DNA of 64,000 nt from an uncultured Gammaproteobacteria bacterium (lineage in GTDB: Bacteria; Patescibacteriota; Microgenomatia; UBA10105), in assembly GCA_964387625.1 (NCBI GenBank), contig CAYLWN010000001.1, forward strand, positions 35,560 to 99,559, written 5' to 3'. This document shows, one piece after another, positions 15,886 to 43,523 of the stretch (within the stretch, counting starts at the first letter, position 1; every line of letters starts with the position of its first letter). Below the pieces are notes generated by a model. The model was not told where the DNA came from, made no database searches, and was given only the letters and a program-made list of their open reading frames with translations. Both the position numbers and the translations under genes were made by a program.

Positions 15886-17049
15886 ATGAAAAATTTATTA
15901 AAGCCTATTAGCTATAACAAACAATCAATTGATACTCTAGACATTAAATCTGTTATTAAGGTTTTAAAATCCGATTTTTTGACACAAGGACCTTTGATTG
16001 AAAAATTTGAAAACGAACTGACAAAATATTGCAAAGTAAAATATGCAGTAGTTTTCTCTTCAGGTACTTCAGCTTTGCATGGAGCATGTTATGCAGCGGG
16101 AATCAAAAAAGGGGATGAAGTGATAACAACTCCTATGACATTTGCTGCTTCAGTAAATTGTGTGATGTATTGTGGTGGTATACCTGTATTTGCTGATATT
16201 AAGCCAGAAATTCCATTAATTGATCCAAACGAAATATTAAAAAAAATTACTAAAAAAACTAAAGCCATAATTCCGGTTGATTATTCAGGAATGCCAGCAG
16301 ACTATGATGAAATTAGTGAAATTGCCAAAAAACATAATTTGATAGTTATTGCTGATGCGTGTCATTCATTAGGAGCTACATATAAAGGAAGCAAGGCTGG
16401 TTCGTTAGCTGACATGTCTATTTTTAGTTTTCATCCGGTAAAATCTATAACTACAGGAGAAGGAGGAGCTGTATTAACAAATAATTATAAATTTTATCAG
16501 AGACTAATATTGTTTCGGACGCATGGCATTACCAAAGATCCTAAACTATTTATTAACAAAAACGAAGGTCCTTGGTATTATGAAATGCAGGATTTAGGCT
16601 TTAATTACCGATTAACGGATATTCAAGCAGCGCTAGGCTTATCTCAATTAGTCAAATTATCTAAATTTATCAAGGTACGTCAAAAAATTGCTGGTTTTTA
16701 TCAACGACAACTAAAAAACATTAGCAATATAAAATTTTTAACAGTTCCCAAAAATAGAACGTCATCTTGGCATTTATTTCCAATACAAATTAGAAACATT
16801 TCATTTTTTCAAAAAACACTATTGGTAAAAATGCTGCATAAAGCCAATATCAAAGTACAAGTTCATTACATACCAGTTCATTTGCAACCGTATTATACAA
16901 AGAAGTTTGGATATAAAAAAGGAGATTTTCCAATTTCTGAAAAATTCTATCAAGAGGAAATTTCAATACCGATTTATCCAAATCTTACAAAAAATGAACT
17001 TAATTATGTACTAATGAATTTACTACTAAATAGTAATAAAATGAATTAG
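15886..17049 (+). CDS. pseC: DegT/PseC-like PLP-dependent UDP-4-keto-6-deoxy-sugar aminotransferase
   Basis: The N-terminus 'QSIDTLDIKSVIKVLKSDFLTQGP' matches the PseC signature. Also 'FSFHPVKSITTGEGG', with the PLP lysine, and 'GFNYRLTDIQAALG'. Confidence 0.65.
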   Translation: MKNLLKPISYNKQSIDTLDIKSVIKVLKSDFLTQGPLIEKFENELTKYCKVKYAVVFSSGTSALHGACYAAGIKKGDEVITTPMTFAASVNCVMYCGGIPVFADIKPEIPLIDPNEILKKITKKTKAIIPVDYSGMPADYDEISEIAKKHNLIVIADACHSLGATYKGSKAGSLADMSIFSFHPVKSITTGEGGAVLTNNYKFYQRLILFRTHGITKDPKLFINKNEGPWYYEMQDLGFNYRLTDIQAALGLSQLVKLSKFIKVRQKIAGFYQRQLKNISNIKFLTVPKNRTSSWHLFPIQIRNISFFQKTLLVKMLHKANIKVQVHYIPVHLQPYYTKKFGYKKGDFPISEKFYQEEISIPIYPNLTKNELNYVLMNLLLNSNKMN

Positions 17050-17473
17050 ATCTGAAGATCGAAAAATTGTTCTTTTGAAATATTTTTAAAGAAATTATAT
17101 TGTTTTTCTTTATTTTTGCTTTTATTGGTATTTTTCTAGTTTTAACCAGCTTTAGGGTTTTTTGAAGAAAGTAGCTTCCATAACCCTGATTTAAAAAACG
17201 TTTATCAATTCCTATAGATAAATAATAAATGTTTCTCGCTAAGTTGTATCTACAATATCCAATAATTATATTTTCTGAATATTTTAAATTGACTTCAAGT
17301 AAAAATATGTAATTATTAGAATTGTCTAAGAATTTTTTATACCACTTTATGTGTTGAGAGAATTGAATTAACTCCGTATTGATAGATTTATTTCTTACGT
17401 GTTTTTGATTTCTGATTAACAATAAACTCTTTGCGTCAGAAAGTTTTGCTTTTCTAATAGACAAATTATTCAT
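17000..17473 (-). CDS. GNAT family N-acetyltransferase (PseH-like candidate)
   Basis: The 'NQGYGSYFLQKTLK' acetyl-CoA motif A is present. I set the start at the first ATG (17473), which forms an ATGA overlap with the stop of the upstream synthase gene. The track start at 17491 is TTG. The 3' end overlaps convergent pseC by 50 nt. Confidence 0.5.
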   Translation of the reverse strand: MNNLSIRKAKLSDAKSLLLIRNQKHVRNKSINTELIQFSQHIKWYKKFLDNSNNYIFLLEVNLKYSENIIIGYCRYNLARNIYYLSIGIDKRFLNQGYGSYFLQKTLKLVKTRKIPIKAKIKKNNIISLKIFQKNNFSIFRSNSFYYYLVVNSLVHN

Positions 17474-18525
17474 TCTTGAATCATTTTCCAACTTAAAGGT
17501 GACCCTTTTTCAATATTTTGTTTTGCAGCTTTTCCAATAATCTGATCTAGATATACAGGCGATATTCCATATCCTGGTCTAATGCACTTAATATTTTTAT
17601 AAGTAATACGTTCTCCTTTTTTTATATCTTTTACAGCAAACAACGAACGTTTAAAAATGATATTTTCAGATTCTTGTTTATCAGGTTTATATGTAATTTT
17701 TCCCATAGCTTTTTCTACATCACGAATAGTTATTACCAATTGTTTCATTTCCTTAGGTTCGAGAGAAAAAGTTGAATCATATCCATCATCTTTTCTGGAT
17801 AAAGTAATATGTTTTTCAATTATTTTTGCTCCCATTGCAACAGCAGTGATTGAAGCAGTTAATCCTAAACTATGATCAGATAATCCGGTAATTACTTTAA
17901 ATTTATGTTGAATATCTTGCATAGTTCTTATGTTCATTTGATTTAAAGTGGCAGGATATGAGCTGATACAATGTAATACTGCAATATTTTTTGATCCTGC
18001 AGTTTTAAGCGTTTTAATGGCTAATTTAATATCTTCAAGCGACGCTAATCCTCTAGAAATAATTACCGGTTTTTTAGTTTTGCCAATACGTTTTAATAGT
18101 TCTAAATCTATATTTTCAAATGACGCAATTTTATATAATGAAACATTCATTTTTTCTAAAAAATCTACCGCAGAATTATCAAATGGGGTAGAAAAACAAA
18201 TCAAACCTTTTTTTTCTGCATAAGATTTTAGCTTGGGTTGCCATTCCCAAGGTGTGTATGTTTTTTGATATAAAGTATAAAGGGTAGTACCTTTCCATTT
18301 TCCGGAAGTTATTTTAAACCATTTTTTATTGCTGTTTATTGTTAATGTTTTGGGAGTATATGTTTGTAATTTTATTGCGTCAACACCAGATTTTGCTGCC
18401 TCATCTACAATTTTATAAGCTTGATCGATATCTTGATTGTGGTTTCCTGACATTTCAGCAACTATAAAACACGGTGAGTTTTCACCAATTGTTTTTTTTC
18501 CGATTTTGAAGTTAATATTATTCAT
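17470..18525 (-). CDS. NeuB/PseI/LegI-family nonulosonic acid synthase (TIM barrel + C-terminal SAF domain)
   Basis: 'GENSPCFIVAEMSGNHNQDIDQAYKIVDEAAKSGVDAIKLQTYT' is the canonical N-terminus of sialic/pseudaminic acid synthases. The C-terminal 'RPGYGISP' block is an SAF domain. Confidence 0.75.
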   Translation of the reverse strand: MNNINFKIGKKTIGENSPCFIVAEMSGNHNQDIDQAYKIVDEAAKSGVDAIKLQTYTPKTLTINSNKKWFKITSGKWKGTTLYTLYQKTYTPWEWQPKLKSYAEKKGLICFSTPFDNSAVDFLEKMNVSLYKIASFENIDLELLKRIGKTKKPVIISRGLASLEDIKLAIKTLKTAGSKNIAVLHCISSYPATLNQMNIRTMQDIQHKFKVITGLSDHSLGLTASITAVAMGAKIIEKHITLSRKDDGYDSTFSLEPKEMKQLVITIRDVEKAMGKITYKPDKQESENIIFKRSLFAVKDIKKGERITYKNIKCIRPGYGISPVYLDQIIGKAAKQNIEKGSPLSWKMIQE

Positions 18526-19657
18526 TCTGTTTTTCCCAGATATTATCTTTTAACCAGTTTCCTTTTTTATCTTTATTCCATACTAAAGAGTTTCTGAATG
18601 AATTTGCAATTTTCCAAAAATCTTTTTCGCTCATGTTGACATATTTAAGCCAATAATTTAAATCCTTAGGTATTATATGGTCATATTTTTTTACCATTTC
18701 TATGCCTTGTTTGCGAGTCATATATCCCATTTTAATATCTTTTGAAGCATGATCAGATGCTCTACCATATCCGAATTTTATATATTTTAAATAGTCATGA
18801 AGACCGTTTTCATAACGGTCATCCAGATTGGAAAAATTTCTATAGGTTCTGTCAAACGGTTTTTTTCTTGGTTTCCAACCGTATTTTTTTTGTATAAGTT
18901 TTGCATGCTGATTAGGATCCCATTTAAAAAAGTTTCCTATATAAAGACCTTTCACTCCTACTTTTAGAATTTCCTCATCAGCCGGATATTTTGCCCATAA
19001 AAGATCTTTTTCAGTAAGTTTTTCTTGAGAATCTGTAATTAAGTCATACCATTCAAAGCCTCTTAAGGAATGCTCATGCCTGCTTCTGTTGCTAAATTCA
19101 ACAAAATCTTCAGGTTCATACATACCTGAAATATCCCAGGCAATTTCTCCCCAAATAATCAATGGAATATTAAATTTGACTGCAATTTGAATTGGATAAG
19201 TTGAGATACCGCAGTGCGCATGCCAATTCATATCTCCCATTTTTCTAAAACATAGGCGGTTTAATTTTTTTAATACTTCCACACTGGGACCAAATACGAG
19301 ATGATCTGCATCAAATTTGTGACGCATTTGATCGCGGTTATAATCACCTTCAGGTAAATAATTATTACCGTGATATGTAACCAAAAGAGGTTTTAATCCA
19401 TATTCTTTAACAATTGTGTGTGTTTGAAAATAACTATCTTTACCGCCACTAACAGGAATTACACAATCATAATTTGACTTATTATTTTTTGTTGTTTGCG
19501 TTATGATCTGTAAAAACTTTTTTTTCCTTATTTTCCAAAACTCGTTTGTTAATTTCTTAAATTTTTCAAATGTCCGACAACTTGAACATACGCCATTTTC
19601 ATCGATATATAAATTGACAGCAACTTCAGGATAGACACATTTTTTACAATATCGCAT
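18518..19657 (-). CDS. N-acetyl sugar amidotransferase (PP-loop ATPase; PseA/WbuX family)
   Basis: N-terminal Cys-rich ribbon (CKKCVYPE...CSSC) and a PP-loop 'SGGKDS' motif. About 380 aa, as in WbuX/PseA. A GGAGG Shine-Dalgarno lies 4 nt upstream of the ATG. Confidence 0.65.
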   Translation of the reverse strand: MRYCKKCVYPEVAVNLYIDENGVCSSCRTFEKFKKLTNEFWKIRKKKFLQIITQTTKNNKSNYDCVIPVSGGKDSYFQTHTIVKEYGLKPLLVTYHGNNYLPEGDYNRDQMRHKFDADHLVFGPSVEVLKKLNRLCFRKMGDMNWHAHCGISTYPIQIAVKFNIPLIIWGEIAWDISGMYEPEDFVEFSNRSRHEHSLRGFEWYDLITDSQEKLTEKDLLWAKYPADEEILKVGVKGLYIGNFFKWDPNQHAKLIQKKYGWKPRKKPFDRTYRNFSNLDDRYENGLHDYLKYIKFGYGRASDHASKDIKMGYMTRKQGIEMVKKYDHIIPKDLNYWLKYVNMSEKDFWKIANSFRNSLVWNKDKKGNWLKDNIWEKQNE

Positions 19658-19660
19658 ATA

Positions 19661-19666
19661 CCTCCA
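19661..19666 (-). promoter_or_regulatory. Shine-Dalgarno (GGAGG) for the amidotransferase gene
   Basis: The minus strand reads TGGAGGTATATG, with the ATG at 19657. Confidence 0.5.
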
Positions 19667-19734
19667 ATTATTTAATAAATAAGATGGTTTTAAATTTTAA
19701 GAGGCAGTATATATCTTATCGTTTTAACACAGCT

Positions 19735-20550
19735 CTATTTTTTATCTATTAAAATCAAATCTGGTGATCTAACATTAAAACCATTTTCAAATAAATACTT
19801 TTTTGCCAAATAAACACTTTGATCAGTATATTGGAAAATATTTGCGGCTGCTATTGCATCAACTTTTGTTTTTGTCAAGGCTTCAGCGAAGTGACTCCAC
19901 TCACCAACTCCGCCACAAGCTATAATCGGGATTTTAACGCAATCTGCGACTTCTTTAATTAAGTGTATGTCATAACCATTTTTGACACCGTCTCTATCTA
20001 CAGAATTTAATAGTATTTCTCCGGCGCCAAAATTTTCGACAGTTTTTGCCCAATCAACAGGATTATAGCATGTTGGTTTAAGACCGTATTCAGACATAAC
20101 GATGTATTTATTATTAATTTTTTTTACATCGATTGAAACTACTATGCATTGTGATCCGAATTCATGTGCAGATTCGGATATAAATTTAGGTTTTTTCAAA
20201 GCTATCGTATTGATAGAAATTTTATCTGCCCCCTTCTTAAGTCTGATTTCAATATCGTTTAAATTTTTTATTCCACCTCCGACCGTAATTGGCATCAAGG
20301 CAACCTTAGAGACGTCATTTATAATATCTAAGAAATTATTTCTATTGGGGTTGTGAATATCATTACGTCGTAGGTCATAATTTTTATTTCTAGATATATC
20401 TAAATATATTAACTCGTCAGCAGCCCATTCACTCAATCGTTTGACTGAAGTTACAGGGTTGCCTAAATTTTGGAAACGTTTAAATTGCTTACTTTGAACC
20501 AACCAACCGTTCTTTAATAGAAGTACAGGTACCAAGCGCTTTTTCTTCAT
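19735..20550 (-). CDS. HisF-like cyclase subunit (WbuZ family) of the sugar amidotransferase system
   Basis: The N-terminus 'RLVPVLLLKNGWLVQSKQFKRF...GNPV' matches the HisF (beta/alpha)8 N-terminus. 'ADELIYLDI' and 'GGGI' blocks are also present. Confidence 0.65.
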   Translation of the reverse strand: MKKKRLVPVLLLKNGWLVQSKQFKRFQNLGNPVTSVKRLSEWAADELIYLDISRNKNYDLRRNDIHNPNRNNFLDIINDVSKVALMPITVGGGIKNLNDIEIRLKKGADKISINTIALKKPKFISESAHEFGSQCIVVSIDVKKINNKYIVMSEYGLKPTCYNPVDWAKTVENFGAGEILLNSVDRDGVKNGYDIHLIKEVADCVKIPIIACGGVGEWSHFAEALTKTKVDAIAAANIFQYTDQSVYLAKKYLFENGFNVRSPDLILIDKK

Positions 20551-21161
20551 AAATTTAGGAAATTATATAAAAGCATTTGTCCGGCTTTTTGGCTTTTTTC
20601 TGGATGGAATTGAACACCGTAAATATTATCCATATTAATAATAGCTGCGAAATTATTTCCATAGTTTGTTTGAGCAATCAAATTTTTTTTATTTTTTGGT
20701 TGAAATACAAAACTATGGACAAAATAAAAATCAAGAGTCTTAAATTGTTTAGTTAATGGTGAGGTTTGTATGACTTCTATATTATTCCAACCGATATGAG
20801 GTAATGGAAGGAATCCTGAATCCAATTTTTTTACTTCTCCCGGAATCCACCCTAGTCCAGTAGTGATTTCAAATTCATATCCTTTATTGGCTAGTACCTG
20901 CATTCCAACGCAAATACCTAAAAAAGGTTTTTTATCTGTAAAAACAGCTTTTTCTAAATGAGTCATAGGGATTAACTGATGGATCTTTCGCATTGCCGCT
21001 GCATATGCGCCAACGCCAGGTAAAATCAAATGAGTAGCATTTTCAATATCACGGGTTTGGTTTGAAATAGTAACATTAGGGTTTAATGTTGTTGCTAAAT
21101 TAAATACAGATTTTACATTACCTGATCCATAGTCCAGAATGCAAATACTAATTTTTTTCAT
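20547..21161 (-). CDS. HisH-like glutamine amidotransferase subunit (WbuY family)
   Basis: 'ISICILDYGSGNVKSV', 'LILPGVGAY', 'PFLGICVGMQVL' with the catalytic Cys, and 'HSF'/'QFHPEKS' with the catalytic His. This is the class I GATase triad. Confidence 0.7.
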   Translation of the reverse strand: MKKISICILDYGSGNVKSVFNLATTLNPNVTISNQTRDIENATHLILPGVGAYAAAMRKIHQLIPMTHLEKAVFTDKKPFLGICVGMQVLANKGYEFEITTGLGWIPGEVKKLDSGFLPLPHIGWNNIEVIQTSPLTKQFKTLDFYFVHSFVFQPKNKKNLIAQTNYGNNFAAIINMDNIYGVQFHPEKSQKAGQMLLYNFLNL

Positions 21162-21293
21162 AACAGCTATTTTTATACAGTCTTAGGTATAGGTAATTAT
21201 AAATTTTGGTTTATAAATTCTGAAGTTTTTAAAAACCAATAATTATATTAATAGTATTATCTACGGTGTTAATAATTTATATAAAAACATATT

Positions 21294-22301
21294 TTATCCC
21301 TTTTTTATTCCAGATGCAGAGTAATATTCTCGGGTTTGCATAGCTTGTTCAAGTAATTTACCTGGTGTATAAAACCTATCACCTAAAATTACACGATCCA
21401 ATATCGGCTTATTATTTTTATCTACTAATTTATTTATTATAAGAGAGCCTTCATTACAAGCGACAAATAAGGAATTTGAATTAATTCGGTATATGATACC
21501 AGTTTGAAAAGGATGAAATTTACCGTCAGTTGTAATACAATAACAATCTTTAATCCTGACTAATTTTCCGTTTAAAAATGTCATAGCACCAGGATAAGGA
21601 TCATCAAAGGCGCAAATGAAACTTTCAATATCAAAAAGTGTCCAACTCCAGTCGATGTATGCGTGTTTATTGGTTGCTAGTCTTGGCCAGTAACTGCTGA
21701 AATATTCAGTTTGTGAAATATGTTTAAATTCGTTATTTTTCTCTATTTTTTTAATAAATGACCCAATAAATTTTAGGTATTGATTCGTAGAAAATTTTTG
21801 AAAATCTAAAGAAATACGACAAAAGGCAGGAAATACATATTCTTCGTAATATACGATATCTCCGGTATCTACTCCGTCGTCAATTAAATGAATTAGGTTA
21901 AATCCTTGCCGGTCTTTCCGTAATATTCTCCAGGAGAATCCACCGCCACCTCTGTCCTGAGGAAGTTTACTACCATGTAGATTAATTAATCTAGAATTAA
22001 ATTTTCTAATAAAACTTGATTTAAAAATCCAAGCAGCTCCTATTGAAATACCTAAAGTAGTTGGAGTGATAATTTCATCAATAATTTTATTATTTAAATT
22101 GGATAATGAAATGTAAGGAATTTTATTCTTATTTAATAATGTGGCTAAAGTAATTCCTATATCAGGAAGGATTTCATTAACGTGTCGTGGGCTGGTGACA
22201 ACAGTAATTTTTTTTTCTTGTTTAGTTAGGGTAATTGCCAATTCACCCAATAATTTTCCGCCGCCAAGAAGTAAATAATGGTCAATTTTTCCAAATCGCA
22301 T
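21294..22301 (-). CDS. formyltransferase-fold protein (Fmt/PurN/ArnA-N-like; putative sugar N-formyl/acyl transferase)
   Basis: 'INLHGSKLPQDRGGG' corresponds to the N-x-H...SLLP..RG catalytic loop. 'LIHLIDDGVDTGDIV' corresponds to the H..D.G.DTG.I motif. There is an Fmt-like C-terminal domain. Confidence 0.5.
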   Translation of the reverse strand: MRFGKIDHYLLLGGGKLLGELAITLTKQEKKITVVTSPRHVNEILPDIGITLATLLNKNKIPYISLSNLNNKIIDEIITPTTLGISIGAAWIFKSSFIRKFNSRLINLHGSKLPQDRGGGGFSWRILRKDRQGFNLIHLIDDGVDTGDIVYYEEYVFPAFCRISLDFQKFSTNQYLKFIGSFIKKIEKNNEFKHISQTEYFSSYWPRLATNKHAYIDWSWTLFDIESFICAFDDPYPGAMTFLNGKLVRIKDCYCITTDGKFHPFQTGIIYRINSNSLFVACNEGSLIINKLVDKNNKPILDRVILGDRFYTPGKLLEQAMQTREYYSASGIKKG

Positions 22302-22584
22302 AATTCAACTTTCCCGAACAGAAATTTGTCTGCCTTTAAGATAGGATTTAATCCGTACTATATCATAGTCTTTTAAAAAAAACATTTTTAATAACATTTT
22401 TTACAGTTGTTTTTCTAGCCTTTTTTATAATCTAATTTTGTTTTGTTTCCCAATTTCAGAAGATATTAAGTACTCCAATAATCAAAATAAATAGATTCCT
22501 GGTTATTAAATAAAATACAACATTAACAACGAAGTTGTTGATTAATAAAATTAATTTAGAATTTTTAACGGCGTAAACAATTAA

Positions 22585-23895
22585 TTATGTGAGGCGAAAA
22601 AATCCTTTATGAGCAGAAGTGCTTTTTAGATGGCTTTCGATATTGTTTTCTTTTATATATTTAGATAATAGTGAAAAAGTAGTATCCAAATGTTTAAGAT
22701 AATTATTTATATGGTTAACTTTATGAGCATATGAAACGTAAAATGCATTAGTTACCAAAAAACCCTTTTCAAGCATGATCTGGATCATCAGTGTTTTTAT
22801 TGCCTGACTATTTGGATAATTAAATTCAAAATGACTTAGAGGATAAATACCGCTAATTGTGATATTAATGTGATTTTTGGATGCAATTTTACGCCATCCA
22901 TTCTGAACAAATTTACCAATTTTATTTATATAAGGAATTATTTTTTTTGTTTTAATAAATTTTATAGTTGCTAAAGCAGTTGTTGGTCCACATCTGTCTG
23001 TCCAAAAAGTGCTGCTAATAAACGAGTCCTGAGCTGCATTCATAAAACTAGATTTTCCTATAATAGCTGCCATGGGAAAACCATTGCTAATAGCTTTTCC
23101 TAAAACAGCAATATCCGGATTAATGTCTAATTTCAAATGGGCGCCTCCCAAACTTAATCTGAATCCAGCAGTAACTTCATCAAAAATTAAAGCGACACCA
23201 TATTTTTGGGTCCGAGATCTGATGGTGGTTAGAAAATCCTTATTGGGATAAGTATTTCGAATAGGTTCCATCACTACTGCTGCCAAATCTTTTTTTAGTT
23301 GATCAAATTTTTGAGTGAATTCTAATAAATTATTATAAGTAAACGGTACAGCGGTTCCAAGAAGACTACGAGGAACACCCTTAGATTCAAGACCAGGTAA
23401 TAAATGATCATCAAGAGCTTTGTCGTTATTTAAATTAGCTGCCAAATACCAGTCATGCCAACCATGGTAACCGCAAAAAAGGATTTTGTCTTTACCAGTT
23501 GCAGCACGAGCAATTCTTACTGCAATAGCCATTGCTTCACCACCGGTTCGGCTATAACGCACTTGTTGTGCCCAAGGATGAAGTTTAATAAGTAACTTAG
23601 CCAATTCAACTTCTTCCGGATTATTGAGAGTACACATATTTCCTTTGTTAATTGCATTTAACGCTGCGTTGTCAATCTCTTTATTAGCATATCCAATAAT
23701 ACTCGCGCCTATGCCCATATAGCTCATATCAAAATAATGTCGACCATCTAAATCCCAAACCTCACATCCTTTTGCTCTTGAATAATATGCAGGCCAAAGA
23801 TCCGGTAAAAACATTTCAGGACGTTTGGATAAAAGCTGAGTACCTCCGGGAATAATTTGTTTTGCAATTTTATATAAACGTTGTGATTTGTCCAT
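22585..23895 (-). CDS. class III PLP aminotransferase, glutamate-1-semialdehyde aminomutase-like
   Basis: N-terminal 'IPGGTQLLSKRPEMFLP...P.YYSRAKGCEVWDLDGRHYFD', with a 'YSRTGGEAM' block. 436 aa. Confidence 0.6.
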   Translation of the reverse strand: MDKSQRLYKIAKQIIPGGTQLLSKRPEMFLPDLWPAYYSRAKGCEVWDLDGRHYFDMSYMGIGASIIGYANKEIDNAALNAINKGNMCTLNNPEEVELAKLLIKLHPWAQQVRYSRTGGEAMAIAVRIARAATGKDKILFCGYHGWHDWYLAANLNNDKALDDHLLPGLESKGVPRSLLGTAVPFTYNNLLEFTQKFDQLKKDLAAVVMEPIRNTYPNKDFLTTIRSRTQKYGVALIFDEVTAGFRLSLGGAHLKLDINPDIAVLGKAISNGFPMAAIIGKSSFMNAAQDSFISSTFWTDRCGPTTALATIKFIKTKKIIPYINKIGKFVQNGWRKIASKNHINITISGIYPLSHFEFNYPNSQAIKTLMIQIMLEKGFLVTNAFYVSYAHKVNHINNYLKHLDTTFSLLSKYIKENNIESHLKSTSAHKGFFRLT

Positions 23896-23904
23896 GAATT
23901 AATC

Positions 23905-24675
23905 CTAAATAACAACTTTCTTATCTAATTTAAGAGATTTTTGATAGCCAATATTTCTAGAGATATATTTATTAATATTTTCCAGTTCCGGGTGTTTTTG
24001 AATGAATTTGATTATATCACTTATGCTAAAATACGGTTTTATATTATATAATCCTTGGTAGATTTTTTTAATAAATTTATAATCTTCCGGATAATCAAGT
24101 GTCCACCTTTTGTTTGAAAGGTCGATAGAGTTTTTAAAATCAAAAATTGAGAACAATTTTGGATGTTTATAAATAAAAGACGTGACATGTTCACGTTCAG
24201 ACAATAATTTTGCTTTTTGCCAGGTTTTTTTTAAAGTTAAATAAGTCATAATTTCAATATCTTCACCATCCGGATAAGTAGGAGGCTGACTATTTGTAGA
24301 ATAATCATTTTTTTGTTTTTCATGGCATAATATCATTTGATCTACCAATTGAGGATCAATCAACGGGCAATCCGAAGTTATACGGATGATGTTTTGTAAT
24401 TGGAATAATCTGGCTGCTTGATAATAGCGATCTAAAACATCATTAGTTGATCCACAATAAACATGTGTTTGTAAATTAAAACAAATTTTCAAAATTTCCA
24501 GATCTTTTTTTTCAATTGTGGTTGCAATAATTAAGATAGAAGACTTTTTAACCCTATTAAGTCTTCTAATTATGTGTTCTAAAACAGTTTTTTTACAAAT
24601 TGGTAAAAGTATTTTATTCGGTAAACGAGTAGATCCGCATCTAGCCTGCACAACGATACCGTATTTATGTGACAT
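23905..24675 (-). CDS. CMP-sugar synthetase / cytidylyltransferase (SpsF/NeuA/KdsB family)
   Basis: N-terminal 'GIVVQARCGSTRLPNKIL' matches the SpsF-like 'QAR.GSTRLP.K' signature. Confidence 0.55.
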   Translation of the reverse strand: MSHKYGIVVQARCGSTRLPNKILLPICKKTVLEHIIRRLNRVKKSSILIIATTIEKKDLEILKICFNLQTHVYCGSTNDVLDRYYQAARLFQLQNIIRITSDCPLIDPQLVDQMILCHEKQKNDYSTNSQPPTYPDGEDIEIMTYLTLKKTWQKAKLLSEREHVTSFIYKHPKLFSIFDFKNSIDLSNKRWTLDYPEDYKFIKKIYQGLYNIKPYFSISDIIKFIQKHPELENINKYISRNIGYQKSLKLDKKVVI

Positions 24676-25642
24676 AATGTTTTGTATTTTTTATATTTAA
24701 AGCAATTCTTAATGTTTGTGAAGCTGATATAACTGAATTTAAGGTATTTCGTTTTTGTTTAACACAGTCCAGAAAATATTTGATTTCATCTATATACATT
24801 TGATTTAAATTATAAGATCTAGGTTCTTCAATCAATTGCCATTTCTTGGTGTTGTGGGAATAAATCTTTACTAAATGTTCTGAAAAATTCCATATGATTG
24901 TGCCTTTTTCGCCGATTATTTTACAATTTCGTGAATAATTATGTTGTAAATAGTCAAGGTGAATATTTACAATCGGGCCTGACTCGAATTTTAAAAGGAC
25001 ATCAGCTACGTCTTCAGTGTCAATATCTAATTTAGATACCTTACCATACATAGATATTTGTTTAATTATTTTTCCAAAAAACCAAATTGCATAATCGAGT
25101 TCATGAATTCCATCAAGAATAATACCGCCTCCCATTATTTTTTGCGCAGAATATGTTTTTCGATAATTGTTTTTTCTCCATTCGGGTAAGTACGAACCTG
25201 ATTCAATATGTGCTGCGTATAATTTACCAATTATTTTCTTTGAGATTAACTCTTTAATCTTACGTATTGCCCAGTAATAACGCATATTACATCCAACCAT
25301 AGTTGTTAAATTTTTATCATCTATTATTGTTAATAATCTTTTTATACTCTTTAAATTGTTTGATAAAGGTTTTTCAATAAAAATGTGGCAACCCATATGA
25401 GCAGCTTTAATAGCATATGATATATGTGTATAAGTTGGAGTATTTATAAAAACTATGTTAGGTAATTGTTGCCAAATACTGTTTATCTTGTTGCAAAAAA
25501 CAACAGAAGGCAGTATTTTTTTAGCCTTAAAAATTTGTCCCTTGGAAGTATCAAAAATAATTACATCCCGATATCCAAGTTTTGATAAATTATTCAAATG
25601 TCGTAAACCTATTGAGCCTACACCAATTAGCGCTATTTTCAT
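24665..25642 (-). CDS. Gfo/Idh/MocA family NAD(P)-dependent oxidoreductase
   Basis: N-terminal 'KIALIGVGSIGLRH' Rossmann motif and an 'EKPL' block typical of the family. Confidence 0.6.
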   Translation of the reverse strand: MKIALIGVGSIGLRHLNNLSKLGYRDVIIFDTSKGQIFKAKKILPSVVFCNKINSIWQQLPNIVFINTPTYTHISYAIKAAHMGCHIFIEKPLSNNLKSIKRLLTIIDDKNLTTMVGCNMRYYWAIRKIKELISKKIIGKLYAAHIESGSYLPEWRKNNYRKTYSAQKIMGGGIILDGIHELDYAIWFFGKIIKQISMYGKVSKLDIDTEDVADVLLKFESGPIVNIHLDYLQHNYSRNCKIIGEKGTIIWNFSEHLVKIYSHNTKKWQLIEEPRSYNLNQMYIDEIKYFLDCVKQKRNTLNSVISASQTLRIALNIKNTKHYVT

Positions 25643-25774
25643 ATTTTTCTGGTTATTAGTTAAATAACTAAAAAGTATATATTGAGTAAAAATTTATATA
25701 TTAAAATTAACTAATAAAAAAATAACTATTGTATAGAACTTGAGATTAGGCCTATTGTATGCTACATTCATACC

Positions 25775-26764
25775 ATGTTTAACTGGTCAAAACAAGTAAT
25801 TCTATTAACAGGAGGTACTGGTTCGTTTGGACAAGCATTCACTAAAACTGTATTAAAACTACATCCACCAAAAAGTTTACGGATTTATAGTCGGGATGAA
25901 TATAAACAATTCGAAATGGAAAAAATAATTTCTCATCCGCATGTAAGATATTTAATTGGTGATGTAAGAGATAAAGATAGATTACAAAGAGCTATGGATG
26001 GCGTAACCCTTGTTATTCATGCAGCCGCGATGAAACAAATAGAGGCTTGTGAATACAATCCCACTGAAGCAATTAAAACCAATATAAACGGAAGTATGAA
26101 TGTAATAGAAACCGCTTTAAATGCAAATGTGGAAAAAGTAATGGGCATAATTACAGATAAAGCTGTATCTCCTGTTAATTTATATGGAGCTACTAAATTG
26201 TGTATGGAAAAACTTATGATACAAGGAAATGTTTATACAGGTAAAAATAAAACTACTATCAGTTGTGTTAGATATGGAAACGTTGCGGGAAGCAGAGGGA
26301 GCGTAATTCCGGTTTTCATAAAACAAAAAGAAAACGGAAAATTCACCGTAACTCATAAAGACATGACTAGGTTTTGGATTACTTTAGAAGAAGCAGTGGC
26401 ATTTGTTATATCATCTATTGAAAAAATGAAAGGTGGGGAAGTATTTATTCCCAAAATGCCAAGTTTTAAAATTATAGATTTAGTTAAAGCAATAGATTCT
26501 AAAGTAAAAATACAATATATAGGAGTTAGATCCGGAGAAAAAATTCATGAGGATTTGGTATCGCAACACGAATCAAGAAATATTGCAGAGTTTAAAAATT
26601 ATTATATTCTATCACCTGATTTTGAATTTTGGAATGATAATAAAAAAACAAATAATAATGGAAATAATAAGGTTATTGTTAATTTTTCCTATAATAGTGG
26701 TAATAATAAATTTTTTCTTACAGTTAAGCAACTAGAAAAACAAATAAGTAATCTTCTTGTATGA
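25775..26764 (+). CDS. pseB: UDP-GlcNAc inverting 4,6-dehydratase PseB (FlaA1 family)
   Basis: Near-collinear match to the remembered PseB/FlaA1 sequence: 'ILLTGGTGSFGQAF...YSRDEYKQFEME...RYLIGDVRDKDRL..AM.GV..VIHAAAMKQIEACEYNPTEAIKTNINGS.NVIE.AL...VEKV..I.TDKA.SPVNLYGATKLC.EKL....N.....KT..S.VRYGNV.GSRGSVIP.F...K......T...MTRFWITL'. Confidence 0.8.
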   Translation: MFNWSKQVILLTGGTGSFGQAFTKTVLKLHPPKSLRIYSRDEYKQFEMEKIISHPHVRYLIGDVRDKDRLQRAMDGVTLVIHAAAMKQIEACEYNPTEAIKTNINGSMNVIETALNANVEKVMGIITDKAVSPVNLYGATKLCMEKLMIQGNVYTGKNKTTISCVRYGNVAGSRGSVIPVFIKQKENGKFTVTHKDMTRFWITLEEAVAFVISSIEKMKGGEVFIPKMPSFKIIDLVKAIDSKVKIQYIGVRSGEKIHEDLVSQHESRNIAEFKNYYILSPDFEFWNDNKKTNNNGNNKVIVNFSYNSGNNKFFLTVKQLEKQISNLLV

Positions 26765-28647
26765 ATACAACGGTAATACTCACCTCTTCTGATTCAGAAG
26801 TTAAATTTGCAATTTCATACCAAAAATCAAATGCTGATAAAAAAGTAATTATTTTAACACCAACTTTAACAGGACAAAAACTATTACGTAATTTAGGATT
26901 AAATTATTTTGATTATTTTAAATATGGTCACGTGAGCCATTCAGATTATTATCAAAAATATTTTTGGAATTTTGAAATTAAAGTAACTTATTTGGTACAA
27001 AAAGTTTTAAAAAATCTTGTAGCAAGATTTCCAGATTTTAAAAAATGGATTTTACCAAATCAGGATTGGTTAGAATTAGTTTATTTAGAAGTATTGGATA
27101 CTTATCAATACTGGCTTTCAATTAATAAATTATTACCCGGATCCCATTATTTGAAATTTTATTATCATAATAAAATACGTACTGACATATATTATCCCTA
27201 TCAAAGTCAAATGCAAATATTATCAATGTTCGTTCCCAAACATAGAATAACTATTATTGATAAACATAATTTTTTAGAAAAAATTATTAAAATATTTATA
27301 AATCTCTACATTTATATTCAGATTATTCCCAACTTATTGATTAATGTTAATACAATAATACACCGATTAATTACTAATTATTTAACTGATAAAAAATTAT
27401 ATAAAACAGATATTTTGATATATTCTGCAGGTAGAAATCTTCTTTATTATGAAAGTTTAATCAAATTACTAAATAAAGAAAAAATATACAAAGGAATTCA
27501 AATTCTTACTGGTTTTCAAACTATCGAAGATGAAGTTGTATTGAATAATACAGGTTTTAAATATATTTCTGCAAATAATGTTATTCCTAACGAATTTAAC
27601 AAGAAAAAGGATAATCTTAAAAAGAAGTTAATAAGTCGCCTTAAGAATATATATACCAGCTATGATTACTCAACCTGTTTAAGTGGTTTTCCAAAATTAG
27701 TTGAAGAAATTTTAATATCAAAGACAAAAGAAGTATTAATTACAAATATTTCAAAAATTATTTCTCAAACAGATATAGCTGAATATTCAATCAAGATGAT
27801 AAAACCACGACTATTGATTACAACTCACGATCCAGGTCCTACTGCATTGCCATTTGTGTTAGCGGCAAAAAAAATGAAAATAAAATCATTATTATTAATG
27901 CATGGATGGCAAAATACACTTATTGGGAATAGATATTATAGTGATTATATTGTTGTTTGGGGAAAATATATAGCTAAATGGTATAAAAAAAGATTAAGGT
28001 ATAATCCAAAAAAAATATTAGCAATAGGATATCCTGCTTTAGATAAATATTTTAAAAATAAGCAGGCTTTTTGGAAAAAAAGACAAATTCTTCCTACGTT
28101 CAAACAAAAAACCAATTTGGGATTGTTATTAACAATGTATTTACCAAACACAGCATTATTATCAAAATTTCTTACTGAACTATTTTGTGAATTAAGAAAC
28201 AATCACAATTTTATTATTAACATCAGACTTCATCCAGGGCAACCCTCTGATGGATTTAAAACACTGGCAAAAGAATTTGGTATAAACGCTAGATTTGGTC
28301 AATCTGTGACTCTTGATAATTTTATTAAAAATAATGATTTTTTGTTGGTTTGGGATACCACCGCAATTATTTGGTGTATGATTTATGGTAAACCATTGTT
28401 TTATTGTGCTCCCAATTGGGGTTTGGGTATAACGCCGATAAATAAATTTGGCGGAGCTTGGTTGGTTAATAGTCCTTCTGATTTATTGATTAAAATTGAA
28501 AATTATATAAAAAATCCAAAAATTATATATAAGTTACATAAAAAGCAAAAAATTTTTTTAAAAAATATAATGGGAATAATTGATGGATCTTCATCAAAAA
28601 GACATAAAAATTTAATTCTAAATTTACTAAAAAGATCTAAATATTAA
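26761..28647 (+). CDS. large hypothetical protein (628 aa), candidate GT-B-like glycosyltransferase; function unknown
   Basis: ATGA-coupled to pseB. No family recognised by eye. The C-terminal half contains 'IINIRLHPGQ', a possible HP motif like CMP-sugar-dependent GT-B enzymes and KpsC/KpsS-like transferases. Confidence 0.35.
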   Translation: MNTTVILTSSDSEVKFAISYQKSNADKKVIILTPTLTGQKLLRNLGLNYFDYFKYGHVSHSDYYQKYFWNFEIKVTYLVQKVLKNLVARFPDFKKWILPNQDWLELVYLEVLDTYQYWLSINKLLPGSHYLKFYYHNKIRTDIYYPYQSQMQILSMFVPKHRITIIDKHNFLEKIIKIFINLYIYIQIIPNLLINVNTIIHRLITNYLTDKKLYKTDILIYSAGRNLLYYESLIKLLNKEKIYKGIQILTGFQTIEDEVVLNNTGFKYISANNVIPNEFNKKKDNLKKKLISRLKNIYTSYDYSTCLSGFPKLVEEILISKTKEVLITNISKIISQTDIAEYSIKMIKPRLLITTHDPGPTALPFVLAAKKMKIKSLLLMHGWQNTLIGNRYYSDYIVVWGKYIAKWYKKRLRYNPKKILAIGYPALDKYFKNKQAFWKKRQILPTFKQKTNLGLLLTMYLPNTALLSKFLTELFCELRNNHNFIINIRLHPGQPSDGFKTLAKEFGINARFGQSVTLDNFIKNNDFLLVWDTTAIIWCMIYGKPLFYCAPNWGLGITPINKFGGAWLVNSPSDLLIKIENYIKNPKIIYKLHKKQKIFLKNIMGIIDGSSSKRHKNLILNLLKRSKY

Positions 28648-33897: not shown

Positions 33898-34989
33898 TTA
33901 ATTGTATATTATCTTTTTAAATACTTGTTCTAATTTATTAGCATACATGTTTATATTGTATTTACTTTTTATTATTTTTCTGGCATTTCTGCCTATTTTT
34001 TCCCTTAGTGATTGAGATTTATTTAATTTATTAATTGCTAGTATTGCACTGTTAAAATCATATGGAGGTATCACGACGCAATGTTTGTAATTTATAAACT
34101 GATATTCGCCGACTCCTGATGTTTTTGTAAATATTACAGGTTTTTCGCAACTCATGCATCTAAATGCTGTACTTTGTCCGGAAAAATAATGATTTGTTTT
34201 TGTTAAAAGTAAAACAAATTTAGATTGCCAGACTCTTTTTCTTAATGTTTCATAATTAACGTTATATTCAAATATTACATTATTTAACGTCGTAGTTTTT
34301 ATTAAACCCTTGTGAGTAATAACTCTAAATTTTTCATTTGGAAAGTATTTCACTACTTGAAAAAAAAGATCCCAATTTCTGTATATATCAGCACCAATTG
34401 TTAATATTTCATTAGTAGATTTTATTGATTTTTTATAAAAAAATTGAGTATCAATCCCAAAGGGGATAAAAGAAAAACGGTTAATTGGAATTCTCAACAT
34501 CTTAGATAGTAATTTACATTCACTAAAACTACCTCCCGACACTATATGATCTATTTGATTAATTATATTTCTTATAATAAATAATGAAATTGGATTGTTT
34601 GACTTTATTAAACCATCATACATGCCAATCGTATTTAAGATAATTTTAGGTTTTATAAATCCTAATTTTTTCAATAGAGCTATTGGTAATCCATAAGTGT
34701 CTACAGTAGCAAAAATACAATCTGCAATGTTTAATTTTGGAATTAATAATAAAGTTGGAATTATTGAAAAGCCACTTTTATAAAATAAGGATACAAACAA
34801 ATTTAAGTAATATTGAAAAAATAATAGAAATTTATGTTTAAATACTTCATCAGTATAAATTAAGTTAAACTTTTTTATTTTTGTTAATCCATAATATAAA
34901 TCATGAGGGTTTTTATTATACTTGGTTAAATGTAAGTTTTTAGTAATTGGTCTGCGAAAAACATAAAAAAACGATTTTTTAGGCCTCAT
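33898..34989 (-). CDS. GT-B (GT4-like) glycosyltransferase
   Basis: 363 aa with two Rossmann-like halves. The C-terminus reads 'EKIGRNARKIIKSKYNINMYANKLEQVF', typical of Glycos_transf_1. The E-x7-E motif is degenerate. Confidence 0.45.
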   Translation of the reverse strand: MRPKKSFFYVFRRPITKNLHLTKYNKNPHDLYYGLTKIKKFNLIYTDEVFKHKFLLFFQYYLNLFVSLFYKSGFSIIPTLLLIPKLNIADCIFATVDTYGLPIALLKKLGFIKPKIILNTIGMYDGLIKSNNPISLFIIRNIINQIDHIVSGGSFSECKLLSKMLRIPINRFSFIPFGIDTQFFYKKSIKSTNEILTIGADIYRNWDLFFQVVKYFPNEKFRVITHKGLIKTTTLNNVIFEYNVNYETLRKRVWQSKFVLLLTKTNHYFSGQSTAFRCMSCEKPVIFTKTSGVGEYQFINYKHCVVIPPYDFNSAILAINKLNKSQSLREKIGRNARKIIKSKYNINMYANKLEQVFKKIIYN

Positions 34990-42554: not shown

Positions 42555-43523
42555 ATGATAACTTTTTTTTCCATACCAAAATCAGATAAAAACAATTCTA
42601 ATATCATTCAAAAGAACTCAATCAATAGTTGGCTTAAATTAACAGATGATATTATTCTGTTTGAGGGAAAAAAGGAAATTAATAATTATCAAATCAGTGA
42701 TAATATAAAAATAATTTCTGGTATTAAAGAAAATAAGTATGGAACGCCTATTTTATCTGATGTCTTTAAAAAAGTGTACCAAAAAGCAAAATATCCAATT
42801 TTGGCATATGTAAATACAGATATAATATTATTTCCTGACTTTATCGATACAATAAAACAAATTTATTTTAAGAAATATCTATTGATTTCTAAAAGACAAA
42901 ATATTTTGTTAAAAAAACAAATATCTTTTCAAACTAATTATGTATCAAATTTGACTAAGACATTAAATCAACAAGGGAGAGAAGAACCTATTGGTAATTC
43001 TTCAGAGTTTTTTGTTTTCCCCAAAATCGTTAGGTTTCAAATGCCGAATTTTGCAGTGGGAAGATTATATTGGGACAGCTGGATAATTTATCGGGCCAAG
43101 CTATTAAGAGTTCCGATTATTGATGGGACCAAAACTATTCATTGTTTACATCAAATTCACGATTATGCTCATCATCCAAATGGTAAAGATGGAGTTTGGA
43201 ATGGACCGGAGGCAAATCTAAATTACAGGTTATCAGGTGGTGGAAAAACACGTTTTAAAGTAAATGATGCCGATTGGATAACTACGGAAAATGGAATAAT
43301 TAAGCCAAAAAATTCTATAAGAAGATATATTAGAACAATCAGGATAAAGGGAATAATTTACCCGAAATTAAATATTATTTTCTTTCCTTTATTTTTATTA
43401 TTGAATGTATGTTTTAAATTAATTATTTTAATGAAATTTTTATTATTTAAACGGGGTATTTTAAGTATAATTGATGCAATTAAACATCCGGAGGATATTG
43501 AGTATAAATTTAAAGAATTGTAA
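42555..43523 (+). CDS. hypothetical protein (soluble N-terminal domain and a C-terminal hydrophobic segment)
   Basis: 322 aa. No recognisable motif beyond a 'VNTDIILFPDF' DxD-like block. The C-terminal 'IIFFPLFLLLNVCFKLIILMKFLLF' segment is hydrophobic. Confidence 0.3.
   Translation: MITFFSIPKSDKNNSNIIQKNSINSWLKLTDDIILFEGKKEINNYQISDNIKIISGIKENKYGTPILSDVFKKVYQKAKYPILAYVNTDIILFPDFIDTIKQIYFKKYLLISKRQNILLKKQISFQTNYVSNLTKTLNQQGREEPIGNSSEFFVFPKIVRFQMPNFAVGRLYWDSWIIYRAKLLRVPIIDGTKTIHCLHQIHDYAHHPNGKDGVWNGPEANLNYRLSGGGKTRFKVNDADWITTENGIIKPKNSIRRYIRTIRIKGIIYPKLNIIFFPLFLLLNVCFKLIILMKFLLFKRGILSIIDAIKHPEDIEYKFKEL

Follow-up and report, generated by a model that had tools for sequence, protein, structure and literature searches.

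A variant pseudaminic acid gene cluster with a missing PseG step and a candidate pseudaminyltransferase in Candidatus Gottesmanbacteria

Judged from its genes, Candidatus Gottesmanbacteria, a groundwater bacterium of the candidate phyla radiation (CPR), has a genuine cluster of genes for pseudaminic acid (Pse), a sugar resembling sialic acid. It lies in the 64-kb stretch of DNA analysed here, called hereafter the window, and is a variant of the known clusters: PseG is missing, an SpsF-type enzyme takes the place of PseF, and extra tailoring genes and an uncharacterised GT-B protein, the probable transferase of the sugar, are present. The best explanation of the whole, to which we assign a probability of about 0.7, is a Pse biosynthesis, tailoring and transfer cluster in which a 628-aa GT-B protein is the pseudaminyltransferase and the PseG step has no gene. 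A preliminary description had reported a complete-looking pathway. All the ORFs it named were found at their positions and on their strands, and only pseC, pseB and the 628-aa ORF, among the ORFs of the cluster, are on the plus strand. Completeness did not hold: PseG is missing, a generic GNAT is all that stands for PseH, and an SpsF-type cytidylyltransferase all that stands for PseF. The genes are as follows, with family scores written as score / curated cut-off (NCBIfam equivalog models, bits).

15886..17049, plus strand: pseC, PLP aminotransferase giving UDP-4-amino-4,6-dideoxy-beta-L-AltNAc (TIGR03588, 488.5 / 423.5)
17000..17473, minus strand: GNAT N-acetyltransferase, presumed PseH analogue (Pfam Acetyltransf_3/1)
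17470..18525, minus strand: pseI, Pse synthase, PEP condensation (TIGR03586, 461.5 / 340.25; NeuB and SAF Pfam domains)
18518..19657, minus strand: WbuX/PseA-type N-acetyl-sugar amidotransferase, a PP-loop ATPase (TIGR03573, 336.6 / 203.2)
19735..20550, minus strand: WbuZ/HisF-like subunit with a cyclase fold, partner of WbuX for the ammonia channel (TIGR03572, 269.7 / 299.7, just under the cut-off)
20547..21161, minus strand: HisH/WbuY-like glutaminase subunit (TIGR01855, 216.4 / 105.4; GATase Pfam domain)
21294..22301, minus strand: Fmt-like sugar N-formyltransferase, tailoring (Formyl_trans_N and Formyl_trans_C Pfam domains)
22585..23895, minus strand: class-III (GSA-like) PLP aminotransferase (PF00202)
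23905..24675, minus strand: SpsF-type cytidylyltransferase, presumed CMP-Pse synthetase and functional PseF (PF02348 CTP_transf_3, E 5.7e-31)
24665..25642, minus strand: GFO/IDH/MocA NAD(P) oxidoreductase, putative redox partner for the module of the two preceding genes (PF01408, PF22725, PF02894)
25775..26764, plus strand: pseB, inverting UDP-GlcNAc 4,6-dehydratase/5-epimerase (TIGR03589, 451.9 / 407.75)
26761..28647, plus strand: 628-aa GT-B protein, candidate CMP-Pse-dependent pseudaminyltransferase, its start overlapping the pseB stop by 4 nt

The assignment to a Pse-type nonulosonic acid (NulO) cluster stands, as PseB, PseC and PseI each scored above their equivalog cut-offs, whereas rival models stayed below theirs; E-values of 1e-136 to 1e-147 lie far outside what chance would give. 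PseC (DegT Pfam domain, E 1.8e-122) shows the SFHxxK PLP-lysine motif and reached only 250.7 / 420 with the LegC family. PseB (Polysacc_synt_2 Pfam domain, E 1.3e-95) is collinear with TIGR03589, residues 5-322 aligning with profile positions 3-322 of 324; it fell far under the cut-offs of FnlA (249 / 730) and LegB (56 / 475), and both identities were rejected. PseI was likewise rejected as a NeuB (326.3 / 399.65 with NeuB_NnaB) and as a KDO8P or DAHP synthase (28.5 bits to the DAHP synthase model). Since the three proteins pass their own cut-offs and score well above LegB, LegC, NeuB and FnlA, the synthase is not of the KDO8P/DAHP type and the dehydratase is not a non-inverting one, in agreement with the inverting PseB-type and PseI-type enzymes first proposed. 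Family membership shows that PseB converts UDP-GlcNAc into UDP-4-keto-6-deoxy-L-AltNAc, that PseC aminates C4, and that PseI forms Pse by condensing PEP with the free 2,4-diacylamido-altrose.

That no obvious PseG is present was borne out by three approaches. The PseG model TIGR03590 matched no ORF between 12941 and 31523, nor the further ORFs 42555-43523 (no Pfam match) and 33898-34989 (weak GT1 match). A genuine PseG used as tblastn query found no match in the window, and neither did a custom PseG HMM applied under the --max setting to every ORF of its 64 kb. PseG was not found either in the syntenic CPR clusters L010, L011 and L016, or in the covered parts of L018, L012 and L015. Because it is missing from the window and from L010, L011 and L016, the Pse pathway as written has a gap at the UDP-sugar hydrolase step, for which no gene was identified in the cluster.

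Compared with the canonical CMP-Pse5Ac7Ac pathway of Campylobacter jejuni and Helicobacter pylori (PseB, PseC, PseH, PseG, PseI, PseF), the window has PseB, PseC and PseI orthologous at equivalog level, and the PseH and PseF roles appear to be taken by the GNAT and the CTP_transf_3 enzyme. It differs in lacking PseG, in that these two enzymes fail the PseH and PseF models, and in the interleaving of the core genes with amidotransferase, formyltransferase, oxidoreductase and class-III aminotransferase genes. The GNAT matched the PseH model TIGR03585 weakly (28 bits, cut-off 93.1), and it adjoins pseI, and pseC where that end is resolved, also in L010 and L016. Its position between pseC and pseI and the analogy with PseH suggest that it acetylates N-4 of the UDP-sugar, later N-7 of Pse.

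The adjacent WbuX/HisF/HisH module (18518-21161) predicts, from its sequence, an acetamidino-Pse. WbuX contains an SGGKDS PP-loop and an N-terminal Cys4 motif; the WbuZ-like protein has a His_biosynth Pfam domain and scored 221 with the AglZ/HisF2 family; in the HisH-like protein the catalytic Cys lies within GICVGMQ and an HPE motif is present. The combination of PP-loop enzyme, HisH-like glutaminase and HisF-like subunit is that of the acetamidino-forming amidotransferases WbuX/WbuY/WbuZ of E. coli O145 and AglX/Y/Z of archaea, PseA being the C. jejuni enzyme of this kind; the WbuZ of the window is slightly under its cut-off. By position and analogy, the three proteins would convert one N-acetyl group to N-acetimidoyl, giving a product such as Pse5Ac7Am or Pse5Am7X. 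In this prediction the window resembles the Tannerella forsythia Pse5Am7Gra locus (PMC5420450), whose Pse derivative also bears an acetamidino group. This module had been overlooked in the preliminary description.

The three accessory genes that had been listed there, the oxidoreductase, the GSA-like aminotransferase and the Fmt-like formyltransferase, were all confirmed. The formyltransferase has an intact catalytic Asn-His...Asp (INLHGSKLP...DDGVDTGD), and among the PDB entries that it matches in sequence are Fmt, WlaRD (a sugar formyltransferase) and PseJ (a Pse formyltransferase; 6ci2, E 8e-9). Catalytic core and Asn-His-Asp are common to PseJ (which acts on N-7 of Pse), WlaRD, ArnA and the enzyme of the window; the latter, however, has 335 aa and an Fmt-type C-terminal domain, whereas the PseJ-like proteins of 228-231 aa found in L010 and L014 carry Formyl_trans_C_2 and form a different subfamily. 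A homologue of 345 aa is present in the NulO cluster L015. The enzyme may, tentatively, N-formylate an amino group.

The cytidylyltransferase did not match the PseF model TIGR03584, but it matched PDB 6oew (E 2.8e-39) and is 36-48% identical to the SpsF-type enzymes of the NulO clusters L011, L012, L014 and L015. An SpsF-type gene is the only CTP_transf_3 gene in view in L011, L016, L012, L014, L018 and L020, and L015 has a second, partial one at the locus edge. A true PseF occupies the corresponding slot in the syntenic L010 (TIGR03584, 269 / 205.7). SpsF-type enzymes in place of NeuA or PseF are known from the B. subtilis sps pathway for Leg (SpsM, C, D, G, E, F), where genetics placed the need for spsF after Leg synthesis, for Leg transfer to the spore surface (PMC7439481), and from the Pse cluster of Vibrio B9-25K2, where an SpsF-like domain fused to an aldo-keto reductase was proposed to replace NeuA (PMC7371886). 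Both differ from the window in having a PseG or, in B. subtilis, the PseG-like SpsG, and B. subtilis in its Leg product. Position and analogy suggest that the SpsF-type enzyme of the window makes the CMP-activated sugar instead of PseF.

Next to it, the class-III aminotransferase stayed under the cut-off of every named equivalog and shares 60-67% identity with homologues from other phyla; a fusion of such an aminotransferase with CTP_transf_3 exists (P0066, 696 aa). It is not reported in the B. subtilis or Vibrio cluster; the association of an oxidoreductase with the SpsF-type enzyme recurs in Vibrio B9-25K2. The oxidoreductase of the window had its best matches, all sub-threshold, to inositol 2-dehydrogenase and UDP-GlcNAc 3-dehydrogenase. 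The genes for aminotransferase, cytidylyltransferase and oxidoreductase lie side by side in the window and likewise in L015 and in L014, which is a flagellin glycosylation island of Sulfurimonas; in L014 and L015 the aminotransferase adjoins the SpsF-type gene and the oxidoreductase is replaced by an aldo-keto reductase. In Legionella Sg6 and Sg12 the aminotransferase and cytidylyltransferase genes are adjacent (for Sg6, PMC3694923), the oxidoreductase being within the same cluster.

The model of the 628-aa protein (AF2, pLDDT 82.9, pTM 0.83) has a GT-B fold, which by itself cannot tell a hydrolase from a transferase. Its only curated-family relatives are BFO_1060, a T. forsythia Pse/Leg transferase family (NF046086, E 1.4e-9), and TIGR04396; each is matched by six of nine relatives, with a best E of 7.8e-15 for BFO_1060. 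The match of the protein itself to BFO_1060 covers only the C-terminal domain, with 37.5 bits for a cut-off of 200. BFO_1060 and Tanf_01245 are Pse/Leg transferases proven genetically, and Tanf_01245, like the protein of the window, is a GT-B/TagB-like protein with an HP motif encoded right by the biosynthetic genes (PMC5420450). The protein is, however, about 180 residues longer, owing an additional domain to its N-terminal part and containing a helical insertion, and T. forsythia, unlike the window, has PseG and PseF. The family has 4270 representatives. Conserved motifs are LLITTHDPGP, RxHPGQ and His381-Gly, the last of them invariant; in the protein, HP and the acidic residue ending N-domain strand beta-4 (THD) are arranged much as in GT-B sialyltransferases. 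Neither Epimerase_2 (NeuC/LegG) nor Glyphos_transf (TagF/TarL) was matched in Pfam even at E 0.001, and a profile built from its close relatives gave no match in the PDB with E of 10 or less.

A PseG or a sialyltransferase-like fold had been proposed for this protein. The latter fits better, since among curated families the protein resembles one of proven Pse/Leg transferases and membership in the PseG family fails: the GT-B fold agrees with PseG, but TIGR03590 was not matched, and hhalign to a PseG alignment covered only the generic C-terminal Rossmann domain (probability 89.6%), missing the catalytic N-terminal GxGH. The protein might nevertheless be a non-orthologous PseG replacement that hydrolyses UDP-2,4-diacetamido-2,4,6-trideoxy-L-altrose; this would complete the pathway and leave Pse transfer to one of the other glycosyltransferases of the supercluster. 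Exactly one canonical step is missing and one conserved soluble protein is unassigned, in four syntenic clusters; the known NulO NDP-sugar hydrolases are all GT-B enzymes; the best fold matches of the model are UDP-GlcNAc 2-epimerases, including the hydrolysing NeuC/LegG, and some distant family members approach or pass the Epimerase_2 threshold (P0273, 43.3 / 30.6). The gene overlaps or abuts pseB (window, L010, L011, L016), neuB (L018, L020) or the cytidylyltransferase gene (L012), and the N-domain cleft holds the most conserved segment. Against this, none of the nine relatives matches PseG, NeuC or WecB models, DSGGxQEE, which we take to be the UDP-binding motif of 2-epimerases, is absent, a CMP donor is indicated by the HP motif and by similarity to the C-terminal domain of WaaA, and a soluble hydrolase would not need the extra 300 or so residues. 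In addition, one family member coexists with a PseG-like gene (L020) and another (L019) has purely glycosyltransferase and ABC-transporter surroundings, with Wzm and GT4 genes next to it, on a 12.5-kb contig without NulO genes that lies mostly on one side of the gene. This evidence is indirect, both members belonging to more distant subclades, that of L020 lacking the THD and HP motifs and the L019 member keeping HP. Because of the sole curated relatives and of these two settings, a CMP-Pse transferase is somewhat favoured, and the hydrolase is a serious but unlikely candidate.

It is still less probable that oxidoreductase, aminotransferase and cytidylyltransferase form a separate pathway to another CMP- or CDP-activated amino compound decorating the glycan, the true CMP-Pse synthetase and PseG being elsewhere or the pathway defective. 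A self-contained unit is suggested by the joint occurrence of the three genes in different phyla and by the existence of fusions (PMC7371886), the PseF equivalog is not matched, and the aminotransferase may be dispensable, being split into two ORFs in the population variant L003. However, L011, L016, L018, L020 and L012 have the SpsF-type enzyme, as sole cytidylyltransferase seen, without the aminotransferase and, except for an aldo-keto reductase in L018, without the oxidoreductase; the PseF in the slot of L010 and the action of B. subtilis SpsF in the Leg pathway (PMC7439481) also speak against it. An even more remote proposal is that only UDP-2,4-diamino-2,4,6-trideoxyhexose derivatives are made, for direct incorporation, and that the NeuB-family gene has another role. 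The absence of PseG would indeed block the free sugar that PseI needs, but PseI is far over its cut-off, with an intact SAF domain and 62% identity to PseI of the sister cluster L016, and a cytidylyltransferase from the family that activates ulosonic acids is never missing. To our knowledge, the characterised CTP_transf_3 members (KdsB, NeuA, PseF, LegF) activate 2-keto-3-deoxy-ulosonic acids, which also counts against a separate pathway.

The GFO oxidoreductase, class-III aminotransferase and SpsF-type cytidylyltransferase are a recurrent, uncharacterised module, found also in Sulfurimonas, Legionella and Vibrio. The three enzymes possibly act together, and the module might add another amino or hydroxyl group to the nonulosonate, or exchange one, by oxidation and then transamination, before CMP activation. 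With the 628-aa GT-B protein as pseudaminyltransferase, Pse would finally pass from CMP-Pse to an acceptor belonging to the envelope-glycan pathway.

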